From Botryllus schlosseri (Eukaryota): a DNA stretch of 64,000 nt. Within the stretch, counting starts at the first letter, position 1; each line of letters begins with the position of its first letter. The translations under genes were made by a program, and so were the position numbers. The stretch lies in contig CM119371.1 of assembly GCA_051294905.1 (NCBI GenBank), positions 29,142,001 through 29,206,000 on the forward strand, written 5' to 3'. Below the pieces are notes generated by a model. It saw only the letters and a program-made list of their open reading frames with translations, was not told the DNA's origin and made no database searches. Of this stretch, positions 37,346 to 54,000 are shown piece by piece.

Positions 37346-39552
37346 CAACATAGTAATCAGCTTATGAAATATAGGGTATGATCAGGCTTGGGCCGGGCAT
37401 TGCTTTTTTCAGACACAATATGAATATAATATTTAGGCAAAAAGTTGTCGTATCGCTCACCATAAGTAGACCTGCCAAACGACAAAAGTAATGGTATAGC
37501 CCCAATTTCCAGCCAAAATACATATATGCTGATTCGGCAGCCAGGTGAAAGTGGAGACCTATTTTAATCATCAACATTGAACTTATTCCGATGGTTGCAT
37601 TGCGGCAGTATAATGCCAATGGTGATTCATTCCCATACAAATTTGTTCTTAGGTTTTACCGCTCCGCAAGGTCAAAACGTTGCGAAACACTTCTCTAAAT
37701 TATAAACCATGAGAATCAAATGTGAACCTTGCAAAATAAAAACAAAGATTATTTGACACGTACCTGATCAACATATCTTTCATGCAGAATGGTAGGTATA
37801 GAAACAATCCAGTCTAGATTTGGAGATGCTGTAACACAATCACAAAATATATTATTGAGTCAAAGTTTATCACTCAATACATGCAGATGAACATTAACTT
37901 GTTACAAGATACAGCATATCAAAGAGAAGTGCATCGACGTGTCATTTCTTAAGCACGTAATTCTTTAGATAAAAAACGGTGCACGTATTGAGGCATGGCC
38001 TGATTTTGATTGCCATGCAATTGCAGCATGACTAATGAACACTATATATCATGAGAGGCAATTAATAGATTGAGATTAACTGCTTGGTACAAATATTTGA
38101 AGATATCACGGCTTCTGTCAAAATCAACAGCTTTATTGGAACAAATACATAGATAGCAGAAAGAGAAGAACATACCCATAAGATTTCAGCATTTTGTAAC
38201 CTCGGGATATCAATGTCCGCTTCATTATATCAACCATGGTAGGAGAATCAGGATATTTCGAACCGATTCCGCGTTGATCACGCTCATTTCGTCTTCAGGT
38301 ACATAAGTCGAAACAGCTTTCTGCAAAGCAAAGCAGTCAAATTTTGAAATATGCACTGAACCAGAATGAAAATTTCAGGAGATTGAATGTGCGGAACCGA
38401 AAATCAAACATTTTTGCAACAGGGGAAGCAGCAAAAACAAAGCAACCTCCATACAATATACATTTATTTAGGCAGGGGCAGCTAGTGTGAAATGGATATA
38501 GTTTCAATAATATTTTAGCTACAATTTCTTTTAAGTGGCTTTCTGTCCTGAATAGCTTATGTGGATGAAATTTTTGTACTGATTAATTTGAGACCACATC
38601 ATATTTAGAGAGCAGTGCCCCTTCAACTCAAACTGTACCACAGGCACAAACCATTATTTCTAATGATGGTAAGTTTGAAAGCATCACTCCTACCTAGAGC
38701 ATGTCCGGATGAAGATTTTTTTTTCTTTTGGCTGTCCGCCAACATATTTTTTGCACAAATAATTTCAATACAATTTCAATTTATGTTTTATAATTTTATC
38801 GCGCACACTCGCATTGATACACATGAAATATACAAACATATTAATGCCCACACTCTCATGGAGAGACGATGAAATTTACATTATCAACGTCTGTGGTGAC
38901 TGCTATGGCTCGAGCAGATATAATTTATAGCCTTTACGGTGACTTGGTAAACCAGTCGAATTTTCATGAATCATGATAGTGATAGTCAGCCTGCCAGACG
39001 CCCAATCACGGACACCAATTCCATACTGGATATACTAGCATGGTTTCATACTAGAAAATTACATTGGATCGCAGTAACTTGTTTGTAATCAACTATAATT
39101 CAACCAAACAAGTCTGACTCAATGACTATAGAATCATTGACTCTAACTCAAGCAGGTGAATTTGATAAGGCAAATTAGAAGCATGCAAAATACACTTATG
39201 AGTGCATTGTCGTCTCACCTTCCCTTTCTTCAGGTCTCGTAATCTCCAATATGGCGTCCGACCGTTCCAGAAAGAATCGAGCAAATATACCCTATATATA
39301 TGTCAGCGAGAATAGAATGCGTTCATACCACATCCCTTAACAGCATGAAACTGACTCATATTCTAAAACGTACAACTATTGTTCTGTACAGTGACAATAA
39401 GGGAATTCGTCTCATAGTAAAACTGCAAGACATATTCGCCATCTTTCCACTTTGATCTTTCAGCTTGGCCCGCATTCCGCTTCGGGTTTTCGAGCCTCGG
39501 TTGGTGAGTCACTAAAGTAGTTATATAGATCGCTCGCGATTCGTAATTGTTT

Positions 39553-39770
39553 CTTATGGCGGGGTGGTGAGGTGCCTGAAAACCGGGGGTGGTGAGGTGA
39601 CCCTTATCTCTTATGGCGGGGGTGGTGAGGTGCCATTGTGTCTTATGGCGGGGGTGGTGAGGTGACCCTTATCTCTTATGGGCGGGGTGGTGAGGTGCCT
39701 GAAAACCGGGGGTGGTGAGGTGACCCTTATCTCTTATGGCGGGGGTGGTGAGGTGTCATGTGTTCTTATG
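39553..39770. repeat. Subterminal G-rich tandem repeats (mirror at about 52624-52841)
   Basis: Repeated cttatggcgggggtggtgaggtg(acccttatct/cctgaaaacc). Confidence 0.9.
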
Positions 39771-42700
39771 GGTGCGGTCGTGATTCGCCTTTTTTTGCTA
39801 TAGGCGGTGGCGGTGATTCGCCGTGAAAACTCGGGGTCGTGACTCGTACTTTCAGGTATAGGCTGCGGCGGTGAATCGTAATGAGAACTCGTGGTCGTGA
39901 TTCGCACTTTCAGACATCTCTCGCGTGGTGTTGAATATGTACGAGTCACCGACAATAACCGCGCAGACGGAAACGTGGCTTGTTGTGAGGATTAAGCAGT
40001 GCGTGCGACAGACGGTGATTCGAATATCAACAATAGTCGCGTTCGCAAACTAACACTTCAAAAAGATGTGAAATATTTGTAAAATCCTACGATCGCTCAC
40101 AAGATACCACTTCCGGCATATCAATCTATCACTCAATACACAACCGAAGTTGAATTGTAATTGAATGCATAAATTTATCACCTCGACATCAAAATTCGAA
40201 AACAACAACTTGACGCTTTATGTTCTCACTCTAATTTCATGATAAGTGTAATAAGTGCCGAATAACAGATACATCACCGGCGAGACTTGAATACCAACAA
40301 ATTGTCACTTATTTCTATTCTAGCCGTAATCCTTTGTGAAGTTGACGCTTATTCAAAAAGGTGTGAAATAGTTTGCAAAACCCCGCGATCACTGACAAGA
40401 TAATGTCTCGGACATACCCATCTTTCACGACTTGGTGTCATAGCCATACCGATCGCTCACGCGGTGAAATTTTAGTAATCAGTTTGTCACAGAACTAGAT
40501 TTCACTGGTAAGATTTAATAAATACCGACTATCAGAACCATCAGTGTGGGTAACTTGAATAGCAACAAATTGTCACTTATTTCCGACGAGAAATTCACTA
40601 AACCGCAGTACATTGTGTGATTTTGAAAAACAGATGTTTGCGCTTGCGTTTTGATATGTGCGACCCACTAACTACATCCGTTTTGCGAACACGGCTTGTT
40701 GTGAGGATTACGCGCGCGCCCTATATTTCGAATGACCTGCGCGCTGAAGTGCGAAATAGTTTGCTAAATCTAGTAATCAGTCGCAAGGTGTTACTTTAGT
40801 AATTAGTTTACCATAGAACCGGCGTAGCCGGTGATTCGAATACCGACAAATTTTCACTTATTTCTGACCCAACCCTAATCCTCTGTGAAGTTGACGCTTA
40901 TTCAAAAAGGTGTGAAATAATTGTAAAATCCTAATCCGAAACCGATTATTTTGACTTTGGCGTAGTGTGCATTGAAATAGGATTGACAAACATGACTAGC
41001 AACTTCCCCACAGTCCCGTTTCGATATTATACACACATTGATTTGAAACAAGTAATGTAACATTACAACTCTATTCCCGATCCAGCTTTCCGTTTGTCAA
41101 AGAGACATTTTAACATCTTACCATACTCAAAAGAATTATTCACAACATTAACAAGTGTTTAAAATCTAGTTTTCACTTACTTGGCTATATCAGTACAACT
41201 CGCAAACTTGAATTAATTCATCTGGTTGTATTCATAGGACCGATAATTTTTATCCAACTGTAAAGGTCGTTATACTATTCTGTAAGACAGAGTATTTACT
41301 AATCGGTGCATATACGATTTGACTTGGGCATATTATATTTTGAGTATACGAGATTTGAGTGTCAGAACAATAACTGAGAATTAAATTATCACAATTGAAT
41401 CCATATACGACAGCGTGAATTAAATTATCACAATTGAATCCATATACGACAGCGTAAAAGATATTGGGATGTCAGCATCTCTTTACGGTTATAGTTACAA
41501 CCACATTACCTAATTTACCCGACCAACTCGTCATGATCATTCCCGAAATCAACACAAACATGACTACTGACTTGAGTCAACCACAAAACAGCATCAAGTT
41601 TTAAATCCACTTGTAGCTTACGGCTTATTTGAATGCGGGTTATGTTTTGTTGTAATTGAGTGTACGGAAATAGTATTACGTCTCGACATCTCACCATCTT
41701 ACCATACTCAAAGAGTCAACCACGAAAACATTGTCAAGTAAATCCGTTTGTAACTTACCCAACCAACTCAAACAGTATCAGTATGAAAAACAGCCAAACA
41801 TACACGAATCCATACAATCACTAAAACCTAAAATCCATAACAAGCTTGGTTGTATTCATATCCCTACACATCTTTTTTTATTCAGCTTGAAAAGTCGTTA
41901 CTATTCTGTAAGATAGAGGAATTACTACGCGGTATATTCTGCAAGACAAACTAATTACTACTCGGTATATTTTGTAAGACAAAAGTAATTACTTCTCAGT
42001 GTCGGCGACTTGAGATTAACATATGTTTTGAGTATATGATATTTGAATGTCTGACCAACGTAGTTGAGAATTCATTTCTTACAATCGAACAATGGTGTTA
42101 TATTCAAAGTTATCATGCTGTGAACATAAGATTGACACATTGATTTGACATATGAGATTTGTAATAGTTGATCATTACTTTATTATTAAATTATTTGCGT
42201 TAATTAGACCCGGCGTTATGGTAAATGTTATGACAGCAACAAACTTTTCAGTACCAATGTTATTAACACATTAAGCTGTAAAACTATGTATGTCTGAAAT
42301 GTTCTTGATAGGAAAATTACTCCACCTTGGTAAAAATCACTCTGCGTATTGCGGATATCAGAAAATATTTCCAGTACCCAAGACTAAAGATGAAACGACA
42401 ATTTCGTTTGCTGATTAACAACCGGTACAATACTTTATCATCATAATCCGCGGTGAGAATTGAAACACTTTCGCGCATTACCCGGTGTCAAGATATCACA
42501 CTAGGTGAATTGACATACCGCCGCTTGAATAATACCTAATCCGTTCGCACCATTTCACATACTTTGATCATTACAAAAGTAAATTGTGATATGTTTGTTA
42601 GATGCATTCAATTCAACTAGAAGTGTCTGGTACACAACAATCGTAATATCGAAAAAGTACTTGCCACACTGTTATTTGCTAAACGTGTTTTGCATTGTTG

Positions 42701-44479
42701 TTCATTTGTAGTATTGATTGTTTTTGAACCCCCAAATCATAATTCCCGACATGAAACCAAGCCGCTGAAAGTCGTTACCATCACGAAGATACAATGTGCA
42801 CGATGTTTGTCAAATGTGTCCTACCTGGCCAACAGAAAACAATTTTCACTCACTCGAAATGAAACCAATGTGATGGTCTCCATTCGATATTTTGTTTGTG
42901 TCAAATATACGTTGCAATGAACACATTTGCGTGGTTGAGCTTTGCCATCATCAAGCTGTCATTTGTATCGTTTAATTAACCGACATTTAGCGATTAGTGA
43001 ACATACCGAACGATACACAGTCACTTCGAAATACTCCGTTGATCATAATTTCCATCATCATAATAATCGAAGTACAATTGCTTCGAATCGCTAGAGTGGT
43101 TGAGCTTTACATCATCAGACTGCCATCTGTACATCAAGAATACATACACCTTGTAACTGGGTCGTTTACCTAACCGAGTTGTATGCACAGTTTGATATTC
43201 AGCGATTGCAGAACATACCATTTCGAAATACTGCGTTGATCTCAATTCCTTTGTCGTGATAATCGAAGTATATTTGTTTCGATTTCATAAAAACCAACTT
43301 TTCTATGACATGATAAATTTTTGAAAAGTTATACTGAGAAGGTTGGTGCATATCGCGAAAAATAATATACCACCCATATTGATATTGCTACTCCATTGAT
43401 CGGTATTTTCACGCGAGTCGATTTTCAAATGAGTAAAATTTATTACATGAGTTTCTCCGCTTAATGTAAATGAAAACTCAGTCGTCTTTTAACATCACAA
43501 AGACATTGATAAAAAGTAAGCAATCAAACACAACACTTTGTACGACACTAGTTATTGTTCCACACATCTCATTTCATACTAAGTGTATACGAAAGATATT
43601 CATGATGCACGAAAATATTCGCTCATGCTACAAACCTGTAGAATGATTGGTGGTGCAAGGCCAGCACAATTGTGGTATCCATCCGAGTTTAGTTAACACA
43701 AATTTATTACAACAGAGCCACGTAAACTTTCGTGAAAGAAAAGCATACTCACTTTCAGAGGGTTATGTCAATGCCATAGCAGTAAATCAAAAATATTCCT
43801 AACCCTTTGCACACCGGTGACAAATCATACAACAAACATTTTTTGTGAGTCGAATTGTTGTTCAGTGTCAAGTCTACCTGTTGAAAAGTGCATTAAAACA
43901 ACACAGTCACAATTCAATTAAAACCACGAATCTATTTTCATTTCGTCACATACAGAAAAATAAATTTTCTTTCCCCAACACATACTTGTAACCAATCGCT
44001 TTCATTAAACACACAACTCCATAAAAGTATTTACTTTCTACAACATAGACATTCCGATGTAGTCAAGAAATATTAAAACGGACACGACACGACTGAATGT
44101 AAGGGGATAGAAGTCTATCGCATCGATTTACATGTGGTCTTCGCTACGGTTTCAAAAAACGAATCATCTATTTTGCATTGGTCGAGACCGAGCGAGCCAG
44201 TTACATGTATTCGCGGTAATGATTTTTCTTGTCATATGCGAATGATAGGTTTGCTACTCCGACAAATCAAATCAACAAACAACAACAATCTTCTGACGAT
44301 CATAATAGCAATTTCATTTGCCACCCCTTCGTAATTGTACACGCACGAAAAGTATATTGTACAACTCGGCAACTACGTTTAACAAGACCAATCACACTAC
44401 CAGCGTTGAACGCAAGATACCTACCCAAGTCAAAAATATCATACGGGTTTGGACAACTGACGTTTACCTGTGTAAAATT

Positions 44480-45000
44480 ATCATTTTCACTTGGCGATCT
44501 ATCCTTTCCTAGAGTAACAAACCCTTGTCGTTTACAAATCTATTTTTTTTTTCCTACAACAAAAAACTATTTTCACTTGGAAAAATACTTTTACCTAGAG
44601 TAACTAATCATTTTCTTTTAAAAATATATTTTCTCCCTGGGTAACAAACCCTTTTCGTTTGGAAAACTATCATTTACCTGAGTACCAATACCGTTTTCAC
44701 TTGGCAGTCCGTCGTTTACCTGGCTAAACATATCATTTTCACTTGGAAATCTATTTTTTCCCAGAGTAAGAAACCTTTTTCACTTTGAAATCTATTTTTT
44801 CCCTGGGTAACAAACCTTTTTCGCTTGGAAATATATTTTTCCCTGGGTTACAAGCCTTTTTCACTTGGTGGTCCGTCATTTACCTGGATAAAAATATCAT
44901 TTTCCTTTGGGGGATCTGGCGTTTACCCAGTGTAACAATACATTTTCTCTTGGTCATCTAGCTTTTCCTAGAGTAACAAAACCATTTTCATTTTGAAATC
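44480..45000. repeat. Degenerate tandem array of about 39 bp (mirror at about 47395-47915)
   Basis: Repeated ttttcacttggaaatctattttttccctgggtaacaaacc-like units. Confidence 0.75.
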
Positions 45001-48000
45001 TGACAAACACACCTGACAATTTGATATTTTTGTATATTGTTACAACGGATAGCGACAAAATATACACCAACAACAACTCCAATACATTTGTGTAATCGCA
45101 TATTCACTTGTGCTGATGCAGCCCATCAATATCATCGGTTACCCGCATGCAATATCCTCTTGTACACCGAAATGCATGTTTTGGAAAATTGGACAATAGG
45201 CTTCGATAGTTTTGTGATGTCCGGGTTCGTGCTTTGGATTTTCCAGAGTCAAAATGTCTGAATAAAACACCTCCTCGACGATGGTTGGTATGTCGATAAC
45301 GGGGTTCGGAAGACGGTTGGATTTATGTCACCCATCGCGATAACAATTCCAGGTCGAGTTTTTCCCCCGCATGTTTACTATATTGTGTCTTTATTGGTCA
45401 ATGTATGTCTCGACATTCAGATTGAAATCGGAAACCCTGATAAAGTATGTAACCGGATCCGGATATCAACTCTGAATCGATAAACCAATGAACAATATTC
45501 AAAGTAAACATGTCACATTCCACGAAAAAATACCATCCAGACATACGTCGCGCTTGTTTGCCCACAACAGTATACGCGTAAATGGAGGTGTGTGACATTG
45601 CATGCAATGTGTTGGTATACAAACATCGGGGAGTAAGCCTTCGATCCACAGACATTATCATAGCCGGTAATTTTGATGCAGATCGAATGTCACACGATAA
45701 CAATACCAATAAGCCACATTGCAATGACTCTGAGTCCGCGCTATTACATCGATATTTCGACACCGTTCACTGATTTATTCGATGGTGTTATCGTGTTGTA
45801 ACATTACAAGATAGTCATGATCCTATCTGTAGACGGACCACCCAGATCAATTGGATACATCGGTCAATATCCATCGTGTTGTCGACACCGAAGTTTTCTG
45901 CTGAGACTACAGCGTTTGATCTAGGTGAACTATCGAAGTACGGTGCTCGAAATGATTGCAATCAGTCTTTCAGTCACGATCAATGGATGTCGCTACTCCC
46001 ACATAACGACTCCGGATAAATATCGTGCAAATGTCGGACTGATATTGTGATCCAATAAGGTATGTTTCTGTGGAATGAAGACTGCAATCGTACACCACAA
46101 TAGAACACTACCTCGCGATTTCACACGCAATCATAAAACACACTTTCGTAAGGGTCTAGCTCGTCCGGTGACATTTCGAAACGGTCGTCACCACAAGAGA
46201 TCGGGGTTGGTCTCGTCATATCGGAGCATTTTGAAACGACATCGTCACAAGTCTATTGACGTCGATTCAGTTGGTCATGTCAATCCGTTTCACAATCCAC
46301 CGTTTTTCAACTCCCCGCACCATAGTGTTACGACACAGACAAGAAGCGTCGGTGGAAATAATAAAACACGGAAAGCACACTTTGGTGTTATTTGACATGG
46401 ATTTTACACCCGACGAACCTCACACTCGAGCGATGCATTGGAATGACGCTTGTATTATTGATGTAGAAGGAACAGAAATGTATCGATTTATTGGTTTCGT
46501 ACGTATCCAACAAAAATCTGGGTATATGATTGTGCATGGTTCGCATATTTGACTGTGAACGCTCTATTGGTATATGCTGTATAGTTCACTTTCACCGTCG
46601 TGCGAATAACCCATGTTACGGTTCGGTGTTTGTGTGTCTGTATGTCACGCTTCAGATTGACTCAGAGTCATTGCAATGTGGCTTATTGGTATTGTTATCG
46701 GGTGACATTCGATCTGCATCAAAATTACCGGCTATGATAATGTCTGTGGATCGAAGGCTTACTCCCCGATGTTTGTATACCAACACATTGCATGCAATGT
46801 CACACACCTCCATTTACGCGTATACTGTTGTGGGCAAACAAGCGCGACGTATGTCTGGATGGTATTTTTTCGTGGAATGTGACATGTTTACTTTGAATAT
46901 TGTTCATTGGTTTATCGATTCAGAGTTGATATCCGGATCCGGTTACATACTTTATCAGGGTTTCCGATTTCAATCTGAATGTCGAGACATACATTGACCA
47001 ATAAAGACACAATATAGTAAACATGCGGGGGAAAAACTCGACCTGGAATTGTTATCGCGATGGGTGACATAAATCCAACCGTCTTCCGAACCCCGTTATC
47101 GACATACCAACCATCGTCGAGGAGGTGTTTTATTCAGACATTTTGACTCTGGAAAATCCAAAGCACGAACCCGGACATCACAGAACTATCGAAGCCTATT
47201 GTCCAATTTTCCAAAACATGCATTTCGGTGTACAAGAGGATATTGCATGCGGGTAACCGATGATATTGATGGGCTGCATCAGCACAAGTGAATATGCGAT
47301 TACACAAATGTATTGGAGTTGTTGTTGGTGTATATTTTGTCGCTATCCGTTGTAACAATATACAAAAATATCAAATTGTCAGGTGTGTTTGTCAGATTTC
47401 AAAATGAAAATGGTTTTGTTACTCTAGGAAAAGCTAGATGACCAAGAGAAAATGTATTGTTACACTGGGTAAACGCCAGATCCCCCAAAGGAAAATGATA
47501 TTTTTATCCAGGTAAATGACGGACCACCAAGTGAAAAAGGCTTGTAACCCAGGGAAAAATATATTTCCAAGCGAAAAAGGTTTGTTACCCAGGGAAAAAA
47601 TAGATTTCAAAGTGAAAAAGGTTTCTTACTCTGGGAAAAAATAGATTTCCAAGTGAAAATGATATGTTTAGCCAGGTAAACGACGGACTGCCAAGTGAAA
47701 ACGGTATTGGTACTCAGGTAAATGATAGTTTTCCAAACGAAAAGGGTTTGTTACCCAGGGAGAAAATATATTTTTAAAAGAAAATGATTAGTTACTCTAG
47801 GTAAAAGTATTTTTCCAAGTGAAAATAGTTTTTTGTTGTAGGAAAAAAAAATAGATTTGTAAACGACAAGGGTTTGTTACTCTAGGAAAGGATAGATCGC
47901 CAAGTGAAAATGATAATTTTACACAGGTAAACGTCAGTTGTCCAAACCCGTATGATATTTTTGACTTGGGTAGGTATCTTGCGTTCAACGCTGGTAGTGT

Positions 48001-51000
48001 GATTGGTCTTGTTAAACGTAGTTGCCGAGTTGTACAATATACTTTTCGTGCGTGTACAATTACGAAGGGGTGGCAAATGAAATTGCTATTATGATCGTCA
48101 GAAGATTGTTGTTGTTTGTTGATTTGATTTGTCGGAGTAGCAAACCTATCATTCGCATATGACAAGAAAAATCATTACCGCGAATACATGTAACTGGCTC
48201 GCTCGGTCTCGACCAATGCAAAATAGATGATTCGTTTTTTGAAACCGTAGCGAAGACCACATGTAAATCGATGCGATAGACTTCTATCCCCTTACATTCA
48301 GTCGTGTCGTGTCCGTTTTAATATTTCTTGACTACATCGGAATGTCTATGTTGTAGAAAGTAAATACTTTTATGGAGTTGTGTGTTTAATGAAAGCGATT
48401 GGTTACAAGTATGTGTTGGGGAAAGAAAATTTATTTTTCTGTATGTGACGAAATGAAAATAGATTCGTGGTTTTAATTGAATTGTGACTGTGTTGTTTTA
48501 ATGCACTTTTCAACAGGTAGACTTGACACTGAACAACAATTCGACTCACAAAAAATGTTTGTTGTATGATTTGTCACCGGTGTGCAAAGGGTTAGGAATA
48601 TTTTTGATTTACTGCTATGGCATTGACATAACCCTCTGAAAGTGAGTATGCTTTTCTTTCACGAAAGTTTACGTGGCTCTGTTGTAATAAATTTGTGTTA
48701 ACTAAACTCGGATGGATACCACAATTGTGCTGGCCTTGCACCACCAATCATTCTACAGGTTTGTAGCATGAGCGAATATTTTCGTGCATCATGAATATCT
48801 TTCGTATACACTTAGTATGAAATGAGATGTGTGGAACAATAACTAGTGTCGTACAAAGTGTTGTGTTTGATTGCTTACTTTTTATCAATGTCTTTGTGAT
48901 GTTAAAAGACGACTGAGTTTTCATTTACATTAAGCGGAGAAACTCATGTAATAAATTTTACTCATTTGAAAATCGACTCGCGTGAAAATACCGATCAATG
49001 GAGTAGCAATATCAATATGGGTGGTATATTATTTTTCGCGATATGCACCAACCTTCTCAGTATAACTTTTCAAAAATTTATCATGTCATAGAAAAGTTGG
49101 TTTTTATGAAATCGAAACAAATATACTTCGATTATCACGACAAAGGAATTGAGATCAACGCAGTATTTCGAAATGGTATGTTCTGCAATCGCTAAATATC
49201 AAACTGTGCATACAACTCGGTTAGGTAAACGACCCAGTTACAAGGTGTATGTATTCTTGATGTACAGATGGCAGTCTGATGATGTAAAGCTCAACCACTC
49301 TAGCGATTCGAAGCAATTGTACTTCGATTATTATGATGATGGAAATTATGATCAACGGAGTATTTCGAAGTGACTGTGTATCGTTCGGTATGTTCACTAA
49401 TCGCTAAATGTCGGTTAATTAAACGATACAAATGACAGCTTGATGATGGCAAAGCTCAACCACGCAAATGTGTTCATTGCAACGTATATTTGACACAAAC
49501 AAAATATCGAATGGAGACCATCACATTGGTTTCATTTCGAGTGAGTGAAAATTGTTTTCTGTTGGCCAGGTAGGACACATTTGACAAACATCGTGCACAT
49601 TGTATCTTCGTGATGGTAACGACTTTCAGCGGCTTGGTTTCATGTCGGGAATTATGATTTGGGGGTTCAAAAACAATCAATACTACAAATGAACAACAAT
49701 GCAAAACACGTTTAGCAAATAACAGTGTGGCAAGTACTTTTTCGATATTACGATTGTTGTGTACCAGACACTTCTAGTTGAATTGAATGCATCTAACAAA
49801 CATATCACAATTTACTTTTGTAATGATCAAAGTATGTGAAATGGTGCGAACGGATTAGGTATTATTCAAGCGGCGGTATGTCAATTCACCTAGTGTGATA
49901 TCTTGACACCGGGTAATGCGCGAAAGTGTTTCAATTCTCACCGCGGATTATGATGATAAAGTATTGTACCGGTTGTTAATCAGCAAACGAAATTGTCGTT
50001 TCATCTTTAGTCTTGGGTACTGGAAATATTTTCTGATATCCGCAATACGCAGAGTGATTTTTACCAAGGTGGAGTAATTTTCCTATCAAGAACATTTCAG
50101 ACATACATAGTTTTACAGCTTAATGTGTTAATAACATTGGTACTGAAAAGTTTGTTGCTGTCATAACATTTACCATAACGCCGGGTCTAATTAACGCAAA
50201 TAATTTAATAATAAAGTAATGATCAACTATTACAAATCTCATATGTCAAATCAATGTGTCAATCTTATGTTCACAGCATGATAACTTTGAATATAACACC
50301 ATTGTTCGATTGTAAGAAATGAATTCTCAACTACGTTGGTCAGACATTCAAATATCATATACTCAAAACATATGTTAATCTCAAGTCGCCGACACTGAGA
50401 AGTAATTACTTTTGTCTTACAAAATATACCGAGTAGTAATTAGTTTGTCTTGCAGAATATACCGCGTAGTAATTCCTCTATCTTACAGAATAGTAACGAC
50501 TTTTCAAGCTGAATAAAAAAAGATGTGTAGGGATATGAATACAACCAAGCTTGTTATGGATTTTAGGTTTTAGTGATTGTATGGATTCGTGTATGTTTGG
50601 CTGTTTTTCATACTGATACTGTTTGAGTTGGTTGGGTAAGTTACAAACGGATTTACTTGACAATGTTTTCGTGGTTGACTCTTTGAGTATGGTAAGATGG
50701 TGAGATGTCGAGACGTAATACTATTTCCGTACACTCAATTACAACAAAACATAACCCGCATTCAAATAAGCCGTAAGCTACAAGTGGATTTAAAACTTGA
50801 TGCTGTTTTGTGGTTGACTCAAGTCAGTAGTCATGTTTGTGTTGATTTCGGGAATGATCATGACGAGTTGGTCGGGTAAATTAGGTAATGTGGTTGTAAC
50901 TATAACCGTAAAGAGATGCTGACATCCCAATATCTTTTACGCTGTCGTATATGGATTCAATTGTGATAATTTAATTCACGCTGTCGTATATGGATTCAAT

Positions 51001-54000
51001 TGTGATAATTTAATTCTCAGTTATTGTTCTGACACTCAAATCTCGTATACTCAAAATATAATATGCCCAAGTCAAATCGTATATGCACCGATTAGTAAAT
51101 ACTCTGTCTTACAGAATAGTATAACGACCTTTACAGTTGGATAAAAATTATCGGTCCTATGAATACAACCAGATGAATTAATTCAAGTTTGCGAGTTGTA
51201 CTGATATAGCCAAGTAAGTGAAAACTAGATTTTAAACACTTGTTAATGTTGTGAATAATTCTTTTGAGTATGGTAAGATGTTAAAATGTCTCTTTGACAA
51301 ACGGAAAGCTGGATCGGGAATAGAGTTGTAATGTTACATTACTTGTTTCAAATCAATGTGTGTATAATATCGAAACGGGACTGTGGGGAAGTTGCTAGTC
51401 ATGTTTGTCAATCCTATTTCAATGCACACTACGCCAAAGTCAAAATAATCGGTTTCGGATTAGGATTTTACAATTATTTCACACCTTTTTGAATAAGCGT
51501 CAACTTCACAGAGGATTAGGGTTGGGTCAGAAATAAGTGAAAATTTGTCGGTATTCGAATCACCGGCTACGCCGGTTCTATGGTAAACTAATTACTAAAG
51601 TAACACCTTGCGACTGATTACTAGATTTAGCAAACTATTTCGCACTTCAGCGCGCAGGTCATTCGAAATATAGGGCGCGCGCGTAATCCTCACAACAAGC
51701 CGTGTTCGCAAAACGGATGTAGTTAGTGGGTCGCACATATCAAAACGCAAGCGCAAACATCTGTTTTTCAAAATCACACAATGTACTGCGGTTTAGTGAA
51801 TTTCTCGTCGGAAATAAGTGACAATTTGTTGCTATTCAAGTTACCCACACTGATGGTTCTGATAGTCGGTATTTATTAAATCTTACCAGTGAAATCTAGT
51901 TCTGTGACAAACTGATTACTAAAATTTCACCGCGTGAGCGATCGGTATGGCTATGACACCAAGTCGTGAAAGATGGGTATGTCCGAGACATTATCTTGTC
52001 AGTGATCGCGGGGTTTTGCAAACTATTTCACACCTTTTTGAATAAGCGTCAACTTCACAAAGGATTACGGCTAGAATAGAAATAAGTGACAATTTGTTGG
52101 TATTCAAGTCTCGCCGGTGATGTATCTGTTATTCGGCACTTATTACACTTATCATGAAATTAGAGTGAGAACATAAAGCGTCAAGTTGTTGTTTTCGAAT
52201 TTTGATGTCGAGGTGATAAATTTATGCATTCAATTACAATTCAACTTCGGTTGTGTATTGAGTGATAGATTGATATGCCGGAAGTGGTATCTTGTGAGCG
52301 ATCGTAGGATTTTACAAATATTTCACATCTTTTTGAAGTGTTAGTTTGCGAACGCGACTATTGTTGATATTCGAATCACCGTCTGTCGCACGCACTGCTT
52401 AATCCTCACAACAAGCCATGTTTCCGTCTGCGCGGTTATTGTCGGTGACTCGTACATATTCAACACCACGCGAGAGATGTCTGAAAGTGCGAATCACGAC
52501 CACGAGTTCTCATTACGATTCACCGCCGCAGCCTATACCTGAAAGTACGAGTCACGACCCCGAGTTTTCACGGCGAATCACCGCCACCGCCTATAGCAAA
52601 AAAAGGCGAATCACGACCGCACCCATAAGAACACATGACACCTCACCACCCCCGCCATAAGAGATAAGGGTCACCTCACCACCCCCGGTTTTCAGGCACC
52701 TCACCACCCCGCCCATAAGAGATAAGGGTCACCTCACCACCCCCGCCATAAGACACAATGGCACCTCACCACCCCCGCCATAAGAGATAAGGGTCACCTC
52801 ACCACCCCCGGTTTTCAGGCACCTCACCACCCCGCCATAAGAAACAATTACGAATCGCGAGCGATCTATATAACTACTCACTAAAGCGTAACCGACCCGG
52901 TTGATCAATCAGCATGAGATATTATTAGTATCTTCGCATTGTGTGCGTGCCACTTCCTACATTCACTGATTGAATATTATACCTATCATTATTGAGTTCG
53001 GACTAGAAATTGATCGAATATGATGGTAAGATGTAAGTCGAGCCATTAGCTCATCTTTGTTTATAAAACTCGGTGGTTGAAAGGGCTTTGCCGCCTAAAT
53101 TTGGTTCCCGCGAAAACACAGCTGACTTCGTGGGATCGCCGCGCAAATAACTGAGGCGTTGCATTACGGTAATTTGGAATAATATTATCTCGATACCGCG
53201 AACAACGATATTCCAATTTTAGATCAAACTTTATACGGTAGCTCGGTATCGCCTTAAATTCCATTATATAAGTTCGTCTATCTATCTTATTGTGAGTTAA
53301 AAAAAATTGCGATTTCCTGCTACAAGCTCACTGCTAAATTCTGAAAAGAACAAGCAACAAACTATTATATCTTCATTTTACTCATTCAATTCCGCTTTAG
53401 TGATGCTGATTTGCACGGCTGACCAATAAATATACTTTCACTTCCGCTCTCTCTGTATTGATAAATGGTATGTCTGCTAGTCCGTCCGGTCGACCGTCCG
53501 ATATGTTGATTTAACCAGCAGCGACATTGAGCACATATGCATTCAATTTCGCGACATCAACGCCCCGCAAGCATCTCGCGCGAACATATACAGCGCAGGT
53601 GATTGGAATGATCATGGCGTAAACAGATATGTTTCCTCAGTTGATCAGAGGTGGCTCGCCGTTCCACGCCTTATCCAGGGTGGAAGGATGTAATATACTG
53701 TAATGCAGGGGTGGTAGCAACATTCCCACGCCTATTCCACCCTGAAAGGGGGAGGAACAGAGAGGTCCACCCCTGCATTACGGTGAATCATCCATATCCA
53801 CTCCTATTCCACCCCAAAACCCACGCTTATTTTTTACAGTGCACGATGAAAGTTTAATGTATATTTTCGGAATCAGTGTGACAGTAGCTTTCAAATAAGA
53901 TCAACTTTATTTAATTTGAGCGCTCGGGTCGTCAGCTATGGAATTAGCAATTACGTTGCGTTCAGATTGCTGAGCAGCATTTTCCTCCGAGCAAGCAAGC

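Follow-up and report, generated by a model that had tools for sequence, protein, structure and literature searches.

The subject of this report is a 13,363-bp palindrome with ends of the Polinton/Maverick type, located at 39516-52878 of a 64,000-nt stretch of DNA from Botryllus schlosseri (GenBank assembly GCA_051294905.1, contig CM119371.1, positions 29,142,001 to 29,206,000 of the forward strand); we refer to the whole stretch as “the window”, and coordinates that carry no contig name are positions of the window. From the comparison of this palindrome with its relatives across the assembly, we consider it probable that it is a young member of a palindromic, helper-dependent family of elements that is present in many copies and uses the Maverick/Polinton machinery of the same genome. 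An earlier note, made from the letters of the window and here called the original prediction, had described the palindrome as a snap-back (defective-interfering-like) copy of one end of a parent Polinton that integrated as a unit; its account of the arms, the ends and the insertion has been borne out by our analysis, while its account of the origin is replaced here.

Structure of the palindrome and its insertion site

The element begins with AGTAGT, ends with ACTACT and is flanked on either side by CACTAA. Its inverted arms, 39516-45736 (6221 nt) and 46659-52878 (6220 nt), have inner ends that lie 922 nt apart, and these predicted boundaries have been recovered exactly by the repeat search and by the arm-to-arm alignment. 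In the alignment, the arms are 4 substitutions and 1 indel apart, the differences being located at 39975, 43200, around 44543 (one T in a T run), 45212 and 45694, i.e. precisely the five positions that had previously been spotted by eye. The repeat search reports the arms as two abutting pairs, each 100% complementary, 39516-44551/47843-52878 (5036 nt) and 44544-45736/46659-47851 (1193 nt); the break between the two pairs is only the 1-base length difference in the T run. The window holds just two matches to the 20-nt motif that is found at the termini, and these are the two ends of the element. The features of the locus are the following:

39510-39515, no strand: left copy of the target site duplication (TSD), CACTAA, a sequence present once in 4/4 paralogous copies of the host repeat
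39516-45736, plus strand: left arm, 6221 nt, non-coding as far as tested, from the repeat search and the arm alignment
39516-39535, plus strand: terminal motif AGTAGT-N6-GATCGSTC, with (AGT)2 at the extreme end, common to the autonomous Mavericks of this genome
39552-39913, plus strand: tandem repeats in subterminal position, of 33-, 58-, 65- and 123-nt period, with the units TCTTATGG and GGTGGTGAGGTG, mirrored in the right arm at about 52481-52842
44570-44868, plus strand: tandem array in the inner arm, comprising 7.3 copies of a 41-nt repeat, with its mirror image at about 47527-47825, in a region covered by all 10 compared copies
45737-46658, plus strand: unique central spacer, 922 nt, with an arm/spacer boundary that is identical in 4/4 copies of the subfamily of the window copy
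46277-46552, plus strand: conserved open reading frame (ORF) of 91 codons and its stop codon, encoding an orphan protein, identified by its conservation over copies
46659-52878, minus strand: right arm, 6220 nt, reverse complement of the left arm, from the repeat search and the arm alignment
52879-52884, no strand: right copy of the TSD, CACTAA, from the empty-site comparison

Inverted sub-repeats have also been detected by the repeat search among the subterminal repeats at 39552-39913, which are putative binding sites for helper proteins. The central spacer would be the loop, if the element folds back. A search against Rfam (E<=0.1) and an ARAGORN scan over 39000-53400 returned no match and no tRNA.

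The target of the insertion (39216-39515 and 52885-53078) is itself a dispersed host repeat. The left flank is a member of this repeat, for which 40 matches were scored out of 51 candidates, and the four closest paralogs are 94-95% identical over 300 bp. All four of them read ...GGTGAG(T/C)CACTAAAGCGTAACCGACC..., so that the two flanks adjoin directly, with one CACTAA between them. Since the four paralogous empty sites hold a single CACTAA, the 13,363-bp palindrome entered an intact target and duplicated 6 bp of it; it was inserted as one unit, having existed as a palindrome before its integration, as the original prediction had argued from the TSD. In alleles that do not carry the element, the empty version of the target would read ...GAGTCACTAAAGCGTA....

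A second way of parsing the junctions, with an 8-bp TSD (tcactaaa) and GTAG ends, is compatible with this site alone and fails on the family: we have rejected it because 13/13 examined elements have AGTAGT/ACTACT ends and a perfect 6-bp TSD, each TSD being of a different sequence. This count leaves out the fourteenth sequenced element, copy C1d24.

The same observations bear on the possibility that the palindrome is a false inverted duplication, created by the assembly. Palindromes are a known assembly hazard, and no spanning long read was available: the DNA runs are assembled as unitigs only, the longest piece is 7934 nt, and no piece covers the element from end to end. A TSD combined with the single-copy state in 4/4 paralogs is, however, unexpected for an artefact, and the recurrence of the structure on many contigs with different TSDs, as well as the 4 substitutions and 1 indel between the arms, also speak against it, to the extent that we hold an artefact to be extremely improbable.

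A high-copy family of palindromic elements

The genome search covered the whole assembly (495.5 Mb, 219 contigs). The 20-nt motif AGTAGT-N6-GATCGSTC has 1148 forward and 1138 reverse matches, against 0 and 3 for the reversed control, and a chance origin of the shared ends is thereby excluded; a search with the terminal 400 bp of the element returns inverted pairs, 12-15 kb apart, on many contigs. The first 100 listed motif matches resolve into 39 plus/minus pairs and 22 unpaired ends. After subtraction of nested members, 23 of these pairs are 12.5-15.6 kb long, 7 are 15.6-19 kb long, 5 are longer and 4 are shorter. We estimate that the family amounts to about 1100 copies of about 14 kb, i.e. 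about 3% of the 495.5-Mb assembly, with the motif count behind this estimate also taking in autonomous elements and single ends.

Fourteen of the approximately 1100 elements have been sequenced, among them the window copy and ten further pairs; the 6.6-, 9.6- and 11-kb pairs and most of the 17-34-kb pairs lie outside this sample. All 11 sequenced copies in the 13.4-15.1-kb range (13,363-15,106 bp) are palindromes. Each arm measures about 6-7 kb, the two arms of a copy are 98.8-99.97% alike, and the spacer spans 916-1012 nt in 10/11 copies and 339 nt in the remaining one. Between copies, the arms are about 63-98% alike and can be aligned in patches only. The subfamilies have diverged by up to about 30%, the palindromic layout is common to all of them, and the arm/spacer boundaries are conserved within subfamilies. 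From the presence of palindromes in 11/11 full-size copies across subfamilies that are up to about 30% diverged, it follows that the palindromic architecture has been handed down within an old family. Other palindromic copies with different TSDs, which the original prediction had proposed to look for, are thus at hand; together with the different flanks, these TSDs exclude that the other palindromes are segmental duplicates of the window locus.

Deviating members of the family have been observed as well. At C1:19317205-19320506 lies a 3.3-kb non-palindromic relative with 375-bp terminal inverted repeats (TIRs), 97.9% alike, and the TSD TTCGTA. Being collinear in its interior with the outer 3.3 kb or so of one arm, it looks like a deletion derivative. 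Copy C8a (C8:27569527-27583816) is the one with the 339-nt spacer; it lacks the 91-codon ORF, differs from the other copies in its central 1.5 kb and has inner arms, about 600 bp long, whose sequence is novel and yet palindromic.

Coding Mavericks with the same ends

At C1:5923771-5942033 we have found an element of 18,263 bp with a 443-bp TIR, the TSD GCCGAG and the same 20-nt terminal motif, but with an unrelated interior, which we refer to as “the helper”. On one strand, its 1214-aa ORF encodes a protein-primed DNA polymerase of family B (pPolB; DNA_pol_B_2, PF03175, 32.6 bits against a cut-off of 25.8), and the 359-aa ORF encodes an rve integrase (60.1 bits) with a Chromo match (36.5 bits). 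A 215-aa ORF with a Walker-A motif gives weak matches to AAA, RNA_helicase and Pox_A32, and may be an A32-like ATPase. The 432-aa ORF (L051:4652-5947, minus strand) matches no Pfam family; it has 238 homologs at E<=1e-5, which are at most 40% identical and, where named, are annotated as “uncharacterized protein F54H12.2-like” or as hypothetical proteins, from various animals. The model of this protein, built from 29 sequences, has a predicted local distance difference test score (pLDDT) of 85.2 and matches the double-jelly-roll capsid proteins of an iridovirus, PBCV-1, Sputnik and mavirus (E 5e-16 to 5e-12, template modelling score about 0.5-0.67); judging by its predicted fold, the 432-aa protein is a double-jelly-roll capsid protein. 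The helper pPolB has 438 first-look candidates in the genome; among the 38 that were scored, with 92-100% identity, 34 contain no stop codon, and 3 of the 4 pPolB matches on C1 below 23.7 Mb sit between listed AGTAGT ends.

Vertebrate Mavericks have been described with (AGT)2/(ACT)2 end motifs and perfect 6-bp TSDs (PMC8097293), the 6-bp TSD being a defining property of Polintons/Mavericks (PMC8097293, PMC3014272); intact vertebrate elements are 12.7-24.6 kb long and have TIRs of 46-1447 bp, with a mean of 402 bp (PMC8097293). Because the ends of the palindrome agree with the published motif and occur on elements that carry pPolB, rve and capsid genes, they are Maverick ends, and plausible active helpers are present in this genome. 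Polinton-type ends and TSD had been predicted from the window, along with the existence of same-ended elements encoding pPolB, integrase, ATPase and a capsid protein; such an element is now at hand, with a weak match in the case of the ATPase.

At the nucleotide level, this one helper is homologous to the palindromes only over about 1.1 kb at one of its ends and about 0.7 kb at its other end, with 70-95% identity. The helper TIR has subterminal repeats of its own, and TTCTTATGG is common to the helper and the palindrome. When all the helper ORFs of at least 80 aa were compared by tblastn with 12 palindromic copies, no gene remnant was found at E<=0.01, save frames over the shared end DNA; when 597 ORFs of at least 50 aa from 11 copies were clustered, no arm ORF of constant length across subfamilies was found, and what clusters among the arm ORFs is the translation of tandem repeats. 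As it encodes no Maverick protein, the palindrome would have to be mobilised in trans, as the original prediction had supposed, and a same-ended coding element that could do so is present.

These results leave the single snap-back copy of a parent Polinton end, integrated at this locus, as a highly improbable explanation. It would agree with the near-perfect palindrome, the Maverick ends, the one TSD and the homology of the outer 1.1 kb or so of the arm to the end of an autonomous Maverick, and a snap-back may well have founded the family; on the other hand, the same architecture is found in 11/11 full-size copies from subfamilies up to about 30% diverged, with boundaries conserved within subfamilies, the end motif occurs about 1140 times per strand, approximately 5 kb of each arm bears no relation to the helper that was sequenced, and there is a conserved ORF in the spacer.

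No better prospects are seen for a foldback-type or other DDE cut-and-paste transposon (of the MULE/Phantom, hAT or P type) that would be unrelated to Mavericks. Long inverted arms with tandem sub-repeats, and the lack of a transposase of its own, are properties that the palindrome has in common with such transposons; however, its TSD is 6 bp long in 13/13 elements, rather than 7-9 bp, its ends are the Maverick-like (AGT)2/(ACT)2, and the only coding elements that were found with these ends carry pPolB, an rve integrase and a capsid protein. In the two longer same-ended elements that were examined, no DDE transposase of another superfamily was seen, and we judge an origin of this kind to be very improbable.

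Concerted evolution of the arms

The relationship between the two arms of a copy has been followed in four-arm alignments of two copies each, for 8 copy pairs. In 8/8 pairs, 92.6-99.3% of the substitutions are symmetric, i.e. both arms of a copy are alike; between the window copy and its closest relative, 75 symmetric substitutions stand against 4 and 2 arm-specific ones. Gap columns are distributed likewise, with 522-2524 symmetric against 1-715 asymmetric columns over the 8 pairs, and the central 1.5 kb of copy C8a, dissimilar to the other copies, is nevertheless palindromic. The arms of each copy evolve in concert, in terms of both substitutions and indels; with lineages up to 30% apart and arms about 99-100% alike, there has to be a process that copies changes, kilobase indels included, from arm to arm.

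Where this process operates is addressed by the less symmetric copies. The arms of copies C5a and C16a are 98.8-98.9% alike, while copy C1d24 has two asymmetric insertions, of 2.7 and 5.6 kb, and arm segments that are 97.6-99.8% alike; overall, asymmetric insertions of 709 bp to 5.6 kb remain uncorrected. Since the older-looking copies have less similar arms and asymmetric insertions persist in them, symmetrisation in the transposing lineage is favoured over conversion in place, although the sample is small and the observation is suggestive only.

An alternative to be weighed here retains the family and its helper, but has the arms kept alike by chromosomal gene conversion or repair after insertion. 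Intrachromosomal conversion is known to act on long inverted repeats that lie close together, and the symmetric site patterns are silent on where the homogenisation happens. Against this alternative stand, with the reservation just made on sample size, the less similar arms of the older-looking copies C1d24, C5a and C16a; the uncorrected asymmetric insertions; and the symmetry of kilobase-long, subfamily-specific segments, which is easier to obtain if one arm is re-made from the other. Conversion after insertion is in our opinion rather unlikely to be what keeps the arms alike.

A conserved ORF in the central spacer

Between 39516 and 47000, i.e. in the left arm and the spacer, the longest stop-to-stop frame is 155 aa, and in this respect the absence of a long ORF that had been reported for the element is confirmed; the further statement that the element is coding-free does not hold, because the 91-codon spacer ORF (46277-46552) is conserved. 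This ORF is located 55-107 nt from one arm and has exactly 91 codons, without any indel, in the 11 copies that hold it, which comprise every sequenced copy whose centre measures about 0.95 kb; 10/11 of these copies have the start codon and 9/11 the same stop codon. Pairwise Nei-Gojobori ratios of nonsynonymous to synonymous substitutions (dN/dS) are 0.16-0.72, mostly 0.2-0.35, at dS values of 0.15-1.5, and in distant subfamilies the ORF is the sole part of the spacer that can be aligned. A genome search with the ORF has given 1197 first-look candidates, and 148 of the 150 that were scored contain no stop codon. Judging from these codon comparisons, the spacer ORF is under purifying selection.

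The 91-aa protein has few relatives. The word-index search has found one near-identical protein, and the profile search over 1.84 billion representatives has added one further 91-aa relative and two WD40 proteins, matched at E 2.5e-5 and 4.2e-5, each over five repeats. The hhalign probability against one of the WD40 proteins is 38.8%, and Pfam WD40 matches 0/11 ORF members at E<=10; the indications that the ORF may be a WD40 fragment are weak and conflicting, and are mentioned as a lead only. A profile search of the family against the PDB found no relative, AlphaFold2 on 11 sequences gave an unusable model (pLDDT 36), and the Atlas search returned unnamed bacterial clusters only, at 0.88-0.90, recognition being below the useful level. 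A derivation of the ORF from an ATPase was also considered, with the helper ATPase matching three spacers by tblastn at E 0.03-0.64, and was rejected on the direct BLASTP comparison (E 0.83). As a conserved, orphan ORF in the loop, it is a candidate for a factor of parasite-helper interaction.

Proposed mechanism and points against it

Protein-primed replicons that slide or jump back typically have reiterated termini. In the mechanism that we propose for the helper-dependent family, protein-primed replication would be started by the helper pPolB at the ends with their reiterated AGT; the single strand, once displaced or excised, would form a hairpin of 6.2 kb whose loop is the spacer; the arms would become identical again through stem repair or copy-back synthesis; and the helper integrase would insert the double-stranded product with a 6-bp stagger. 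A single-stranded panhandle intermediate, with protein priming, is the replication scheme given for Polintons/Mavericks in PMC4046053, where it has the standing of a model only. The product may also be packaged into helper capsids, and this would fit with a family length close to that of the helper and with short derivatives being rare; that the length is held near 14 kb across subfamilies by a packaging constraint is a speculation. The 91-aa protein would serve the parasite.

Several points weigh against this helper-dependent reading. Firstly, symmetrisation during replication is what we infer, and chromosomal arm-to-arm gene conversion would give identical site patterns. Secondly, integration does not require long arms, given that the 3.3-kb relative has TIRs of 375 bp and a TSD of its own. 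Thirdly, for approximately 5 kb of each arm, no relation to the one sequenced helper could be detected. Fourthly, Pfam has no family for the 91-aa protein, and the ORF is without a recognisable family or fold; moreover, in one RNA run, of which about 6% was read at an identity of at least 97%, no read lies on 45716-46703. Fifthly, the six-frame search of the genome with PF03175 gave no match, despite the presence of dozens of intact pPolB genes, and since this search missed an existing gene, the negatives of such family searches are weak in this genome. Sixthly, no read or contig spans a whole copy, and because only short unitigs are available, the physical structure rests on the assembly and on the logic of the TSD and the empty sites. 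Lastly, the support comes from integrated copies, with no extrachromosomal form, virion or transposition event having been observed.

A more specific possibility, which we put forward tentatively, is that the family is a satellite of an endogenous polintovirus, i.e. a genome-length, gene-poor element that would be replicated by the helper pPolB, packaged into helper capsids and, in each cycle, would re-make one of its arms from the other through fold-back. A satellite of this kind would explain why the arms are about 99-100% alike despite lineages that are 30% apart, why the length is 13.4-15.1 kb, near the 17-18 kb of the helper and without the shrinking seen in miniature inverted-repeat transposable elements (MITEs), and why a 91-aa gene, acting on the helper or on the host, is kept in the loop. 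If it is true, the approximately 1100 copies are a natural record of Maverick replication, which is not known to have been demonstrated by experiment.

Comparison with known systems

The palindrome has in common with autonomous Polintons/Mavericks the (AGT)2...(ACT)2 termini, the 6-bp TSDs and the TIRs with subterminal repeats; with the co-resident coding Mavericks, it further shares the motif of 20 nt at the termini and end sequence over about 1 kb. All the cis features that were tested are present, namely the 6-bp TSD, the (AGT)2/(ACT)2 ends and the sharing of these ends with a coding element of the same genome. It differs from Mavericks in that it encodes no pPolB, integrase, ATPase, protease or capsid protein, and in that its inverted repeat is 6.2 kb per arm, or 93% of the element, compared with 443 bp in the helper. 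By definition, all Polintons encode a protein-primed DNA polymerase (pDNAP) and an integrase, as stated in PMC5499653; without pPolB and integrase, the palindrome is not a Polinton in the strict sense, and no remnant of the genes of a strict Polinton (pPolB, rve integrase, jelly-roll capsid proteins, packaging ATPase) was found in the palindromic copies, either by tblastn (E<=0.01) or by ORF clustering.

Defective snap-back genomes of adenoviruses resemble the palindrome as palindromic molecules of a protein-primed linear replicon, which contain the same end twice, replicate and depend on a helper. The snap-back or incomplete-particle DNA of adenoviruses arises anew in each infection and copies helper sequence, whereas here we have a heritable, integrated and diversified lineage with an ORF of its own and only its outer 1.1 kb or so helper-like: rather than being a whole-length copy of a helper end, the 6.2-kb arm aligns with the one helper over about 1.1 kb.

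The foldback elements (Drosophila FB, sea-urchin TU) are alike in their long inverted arms, built in part of tandem sub-repeats, their small or variable centre and, for the most part, their lack of coding capacity. FB has a 9-bp TSD, and foldback elements are mobilised by a DDE transposase; the palindrome differs from them in its 6-bp TSD, in ends that are common to pPolB/integrase elements and in coding relatives that have pPolB and rve in place of a Mutator-type transposase. MITEs and other non-autonomous DNA transposons are also mobilised in trans via shared ends and outnumber their autonomous partners, as the palindromes appear to do (1197 first-look ORF candidates against 438 first-look pPolB candidates); they are, however, usually short deletion derivatives, while the copies described here are 13.4-15.1 kb long and only 4/39 pairs are under 12.5 kb.

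The Tlr1 elements of Tetrahymena, which in PMC5499653 are said to be “sometimes viewed as non-autonomous polintons”, are likewise large and Polinton-related, with long and complex inverted ends; they differ in that they have many genes and are counted among the polinton-like viruses, whereas the palindrome has a single 91-codon ORF. Satellite viruses and virophages share the dependence on helper replication, and possibly on capsid functions, and the retention of a gene of their own; the palindrome, on the other hand, has no capsid gene, and the likeness draws on length conservation only. No palindromic or foldback non-autonomous Polinton/Maverick was found to be described in a full-text literature search, the scope of which did not extend to the Repbase reports and to Kapitonov and Jurka (2006).

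The family suggests that Mavericks, which are widespread virus-like elements, can support very successful helper-dependent parasites. Strictly concerted arms are the expected outcome of a fold-back or panhandle intermediate, and would provide a testable, natural read-out of it. In practical terms, thousands of near-perfect, 6-kb inverted repeats in one genome are a hazard for assembly and read mapping, and possibly for genome stability.

Additional observations

In two studies, the word depth inside the element greatly exceeds the depth over the flanks; it is not to be read as copy number. In the RNA run, a few reads lie on the left flank at 39219-39446, outside the element, and their loose ends continue into dissimilar sequence, as would be expected of spliced RNAs or of transcripts from other copies of the host repeat.

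At C8:27569562-27599573, three end matches (+, -, +) are located 14 and 16 kb apart, the first pair having been sequenced; the arrangement points to two copies that adjoin or overlap, or to one with a shared end. At C1:16768420-16810257, we have found a nest of three elements that have these ends and net lengths of 13.1, 14.0 and 14.7 kb, with matches to the 91-codon ORF at 16794163 and 16803772; a three-deep nest is a ready series of relative ages along which arm divergence can be followed.

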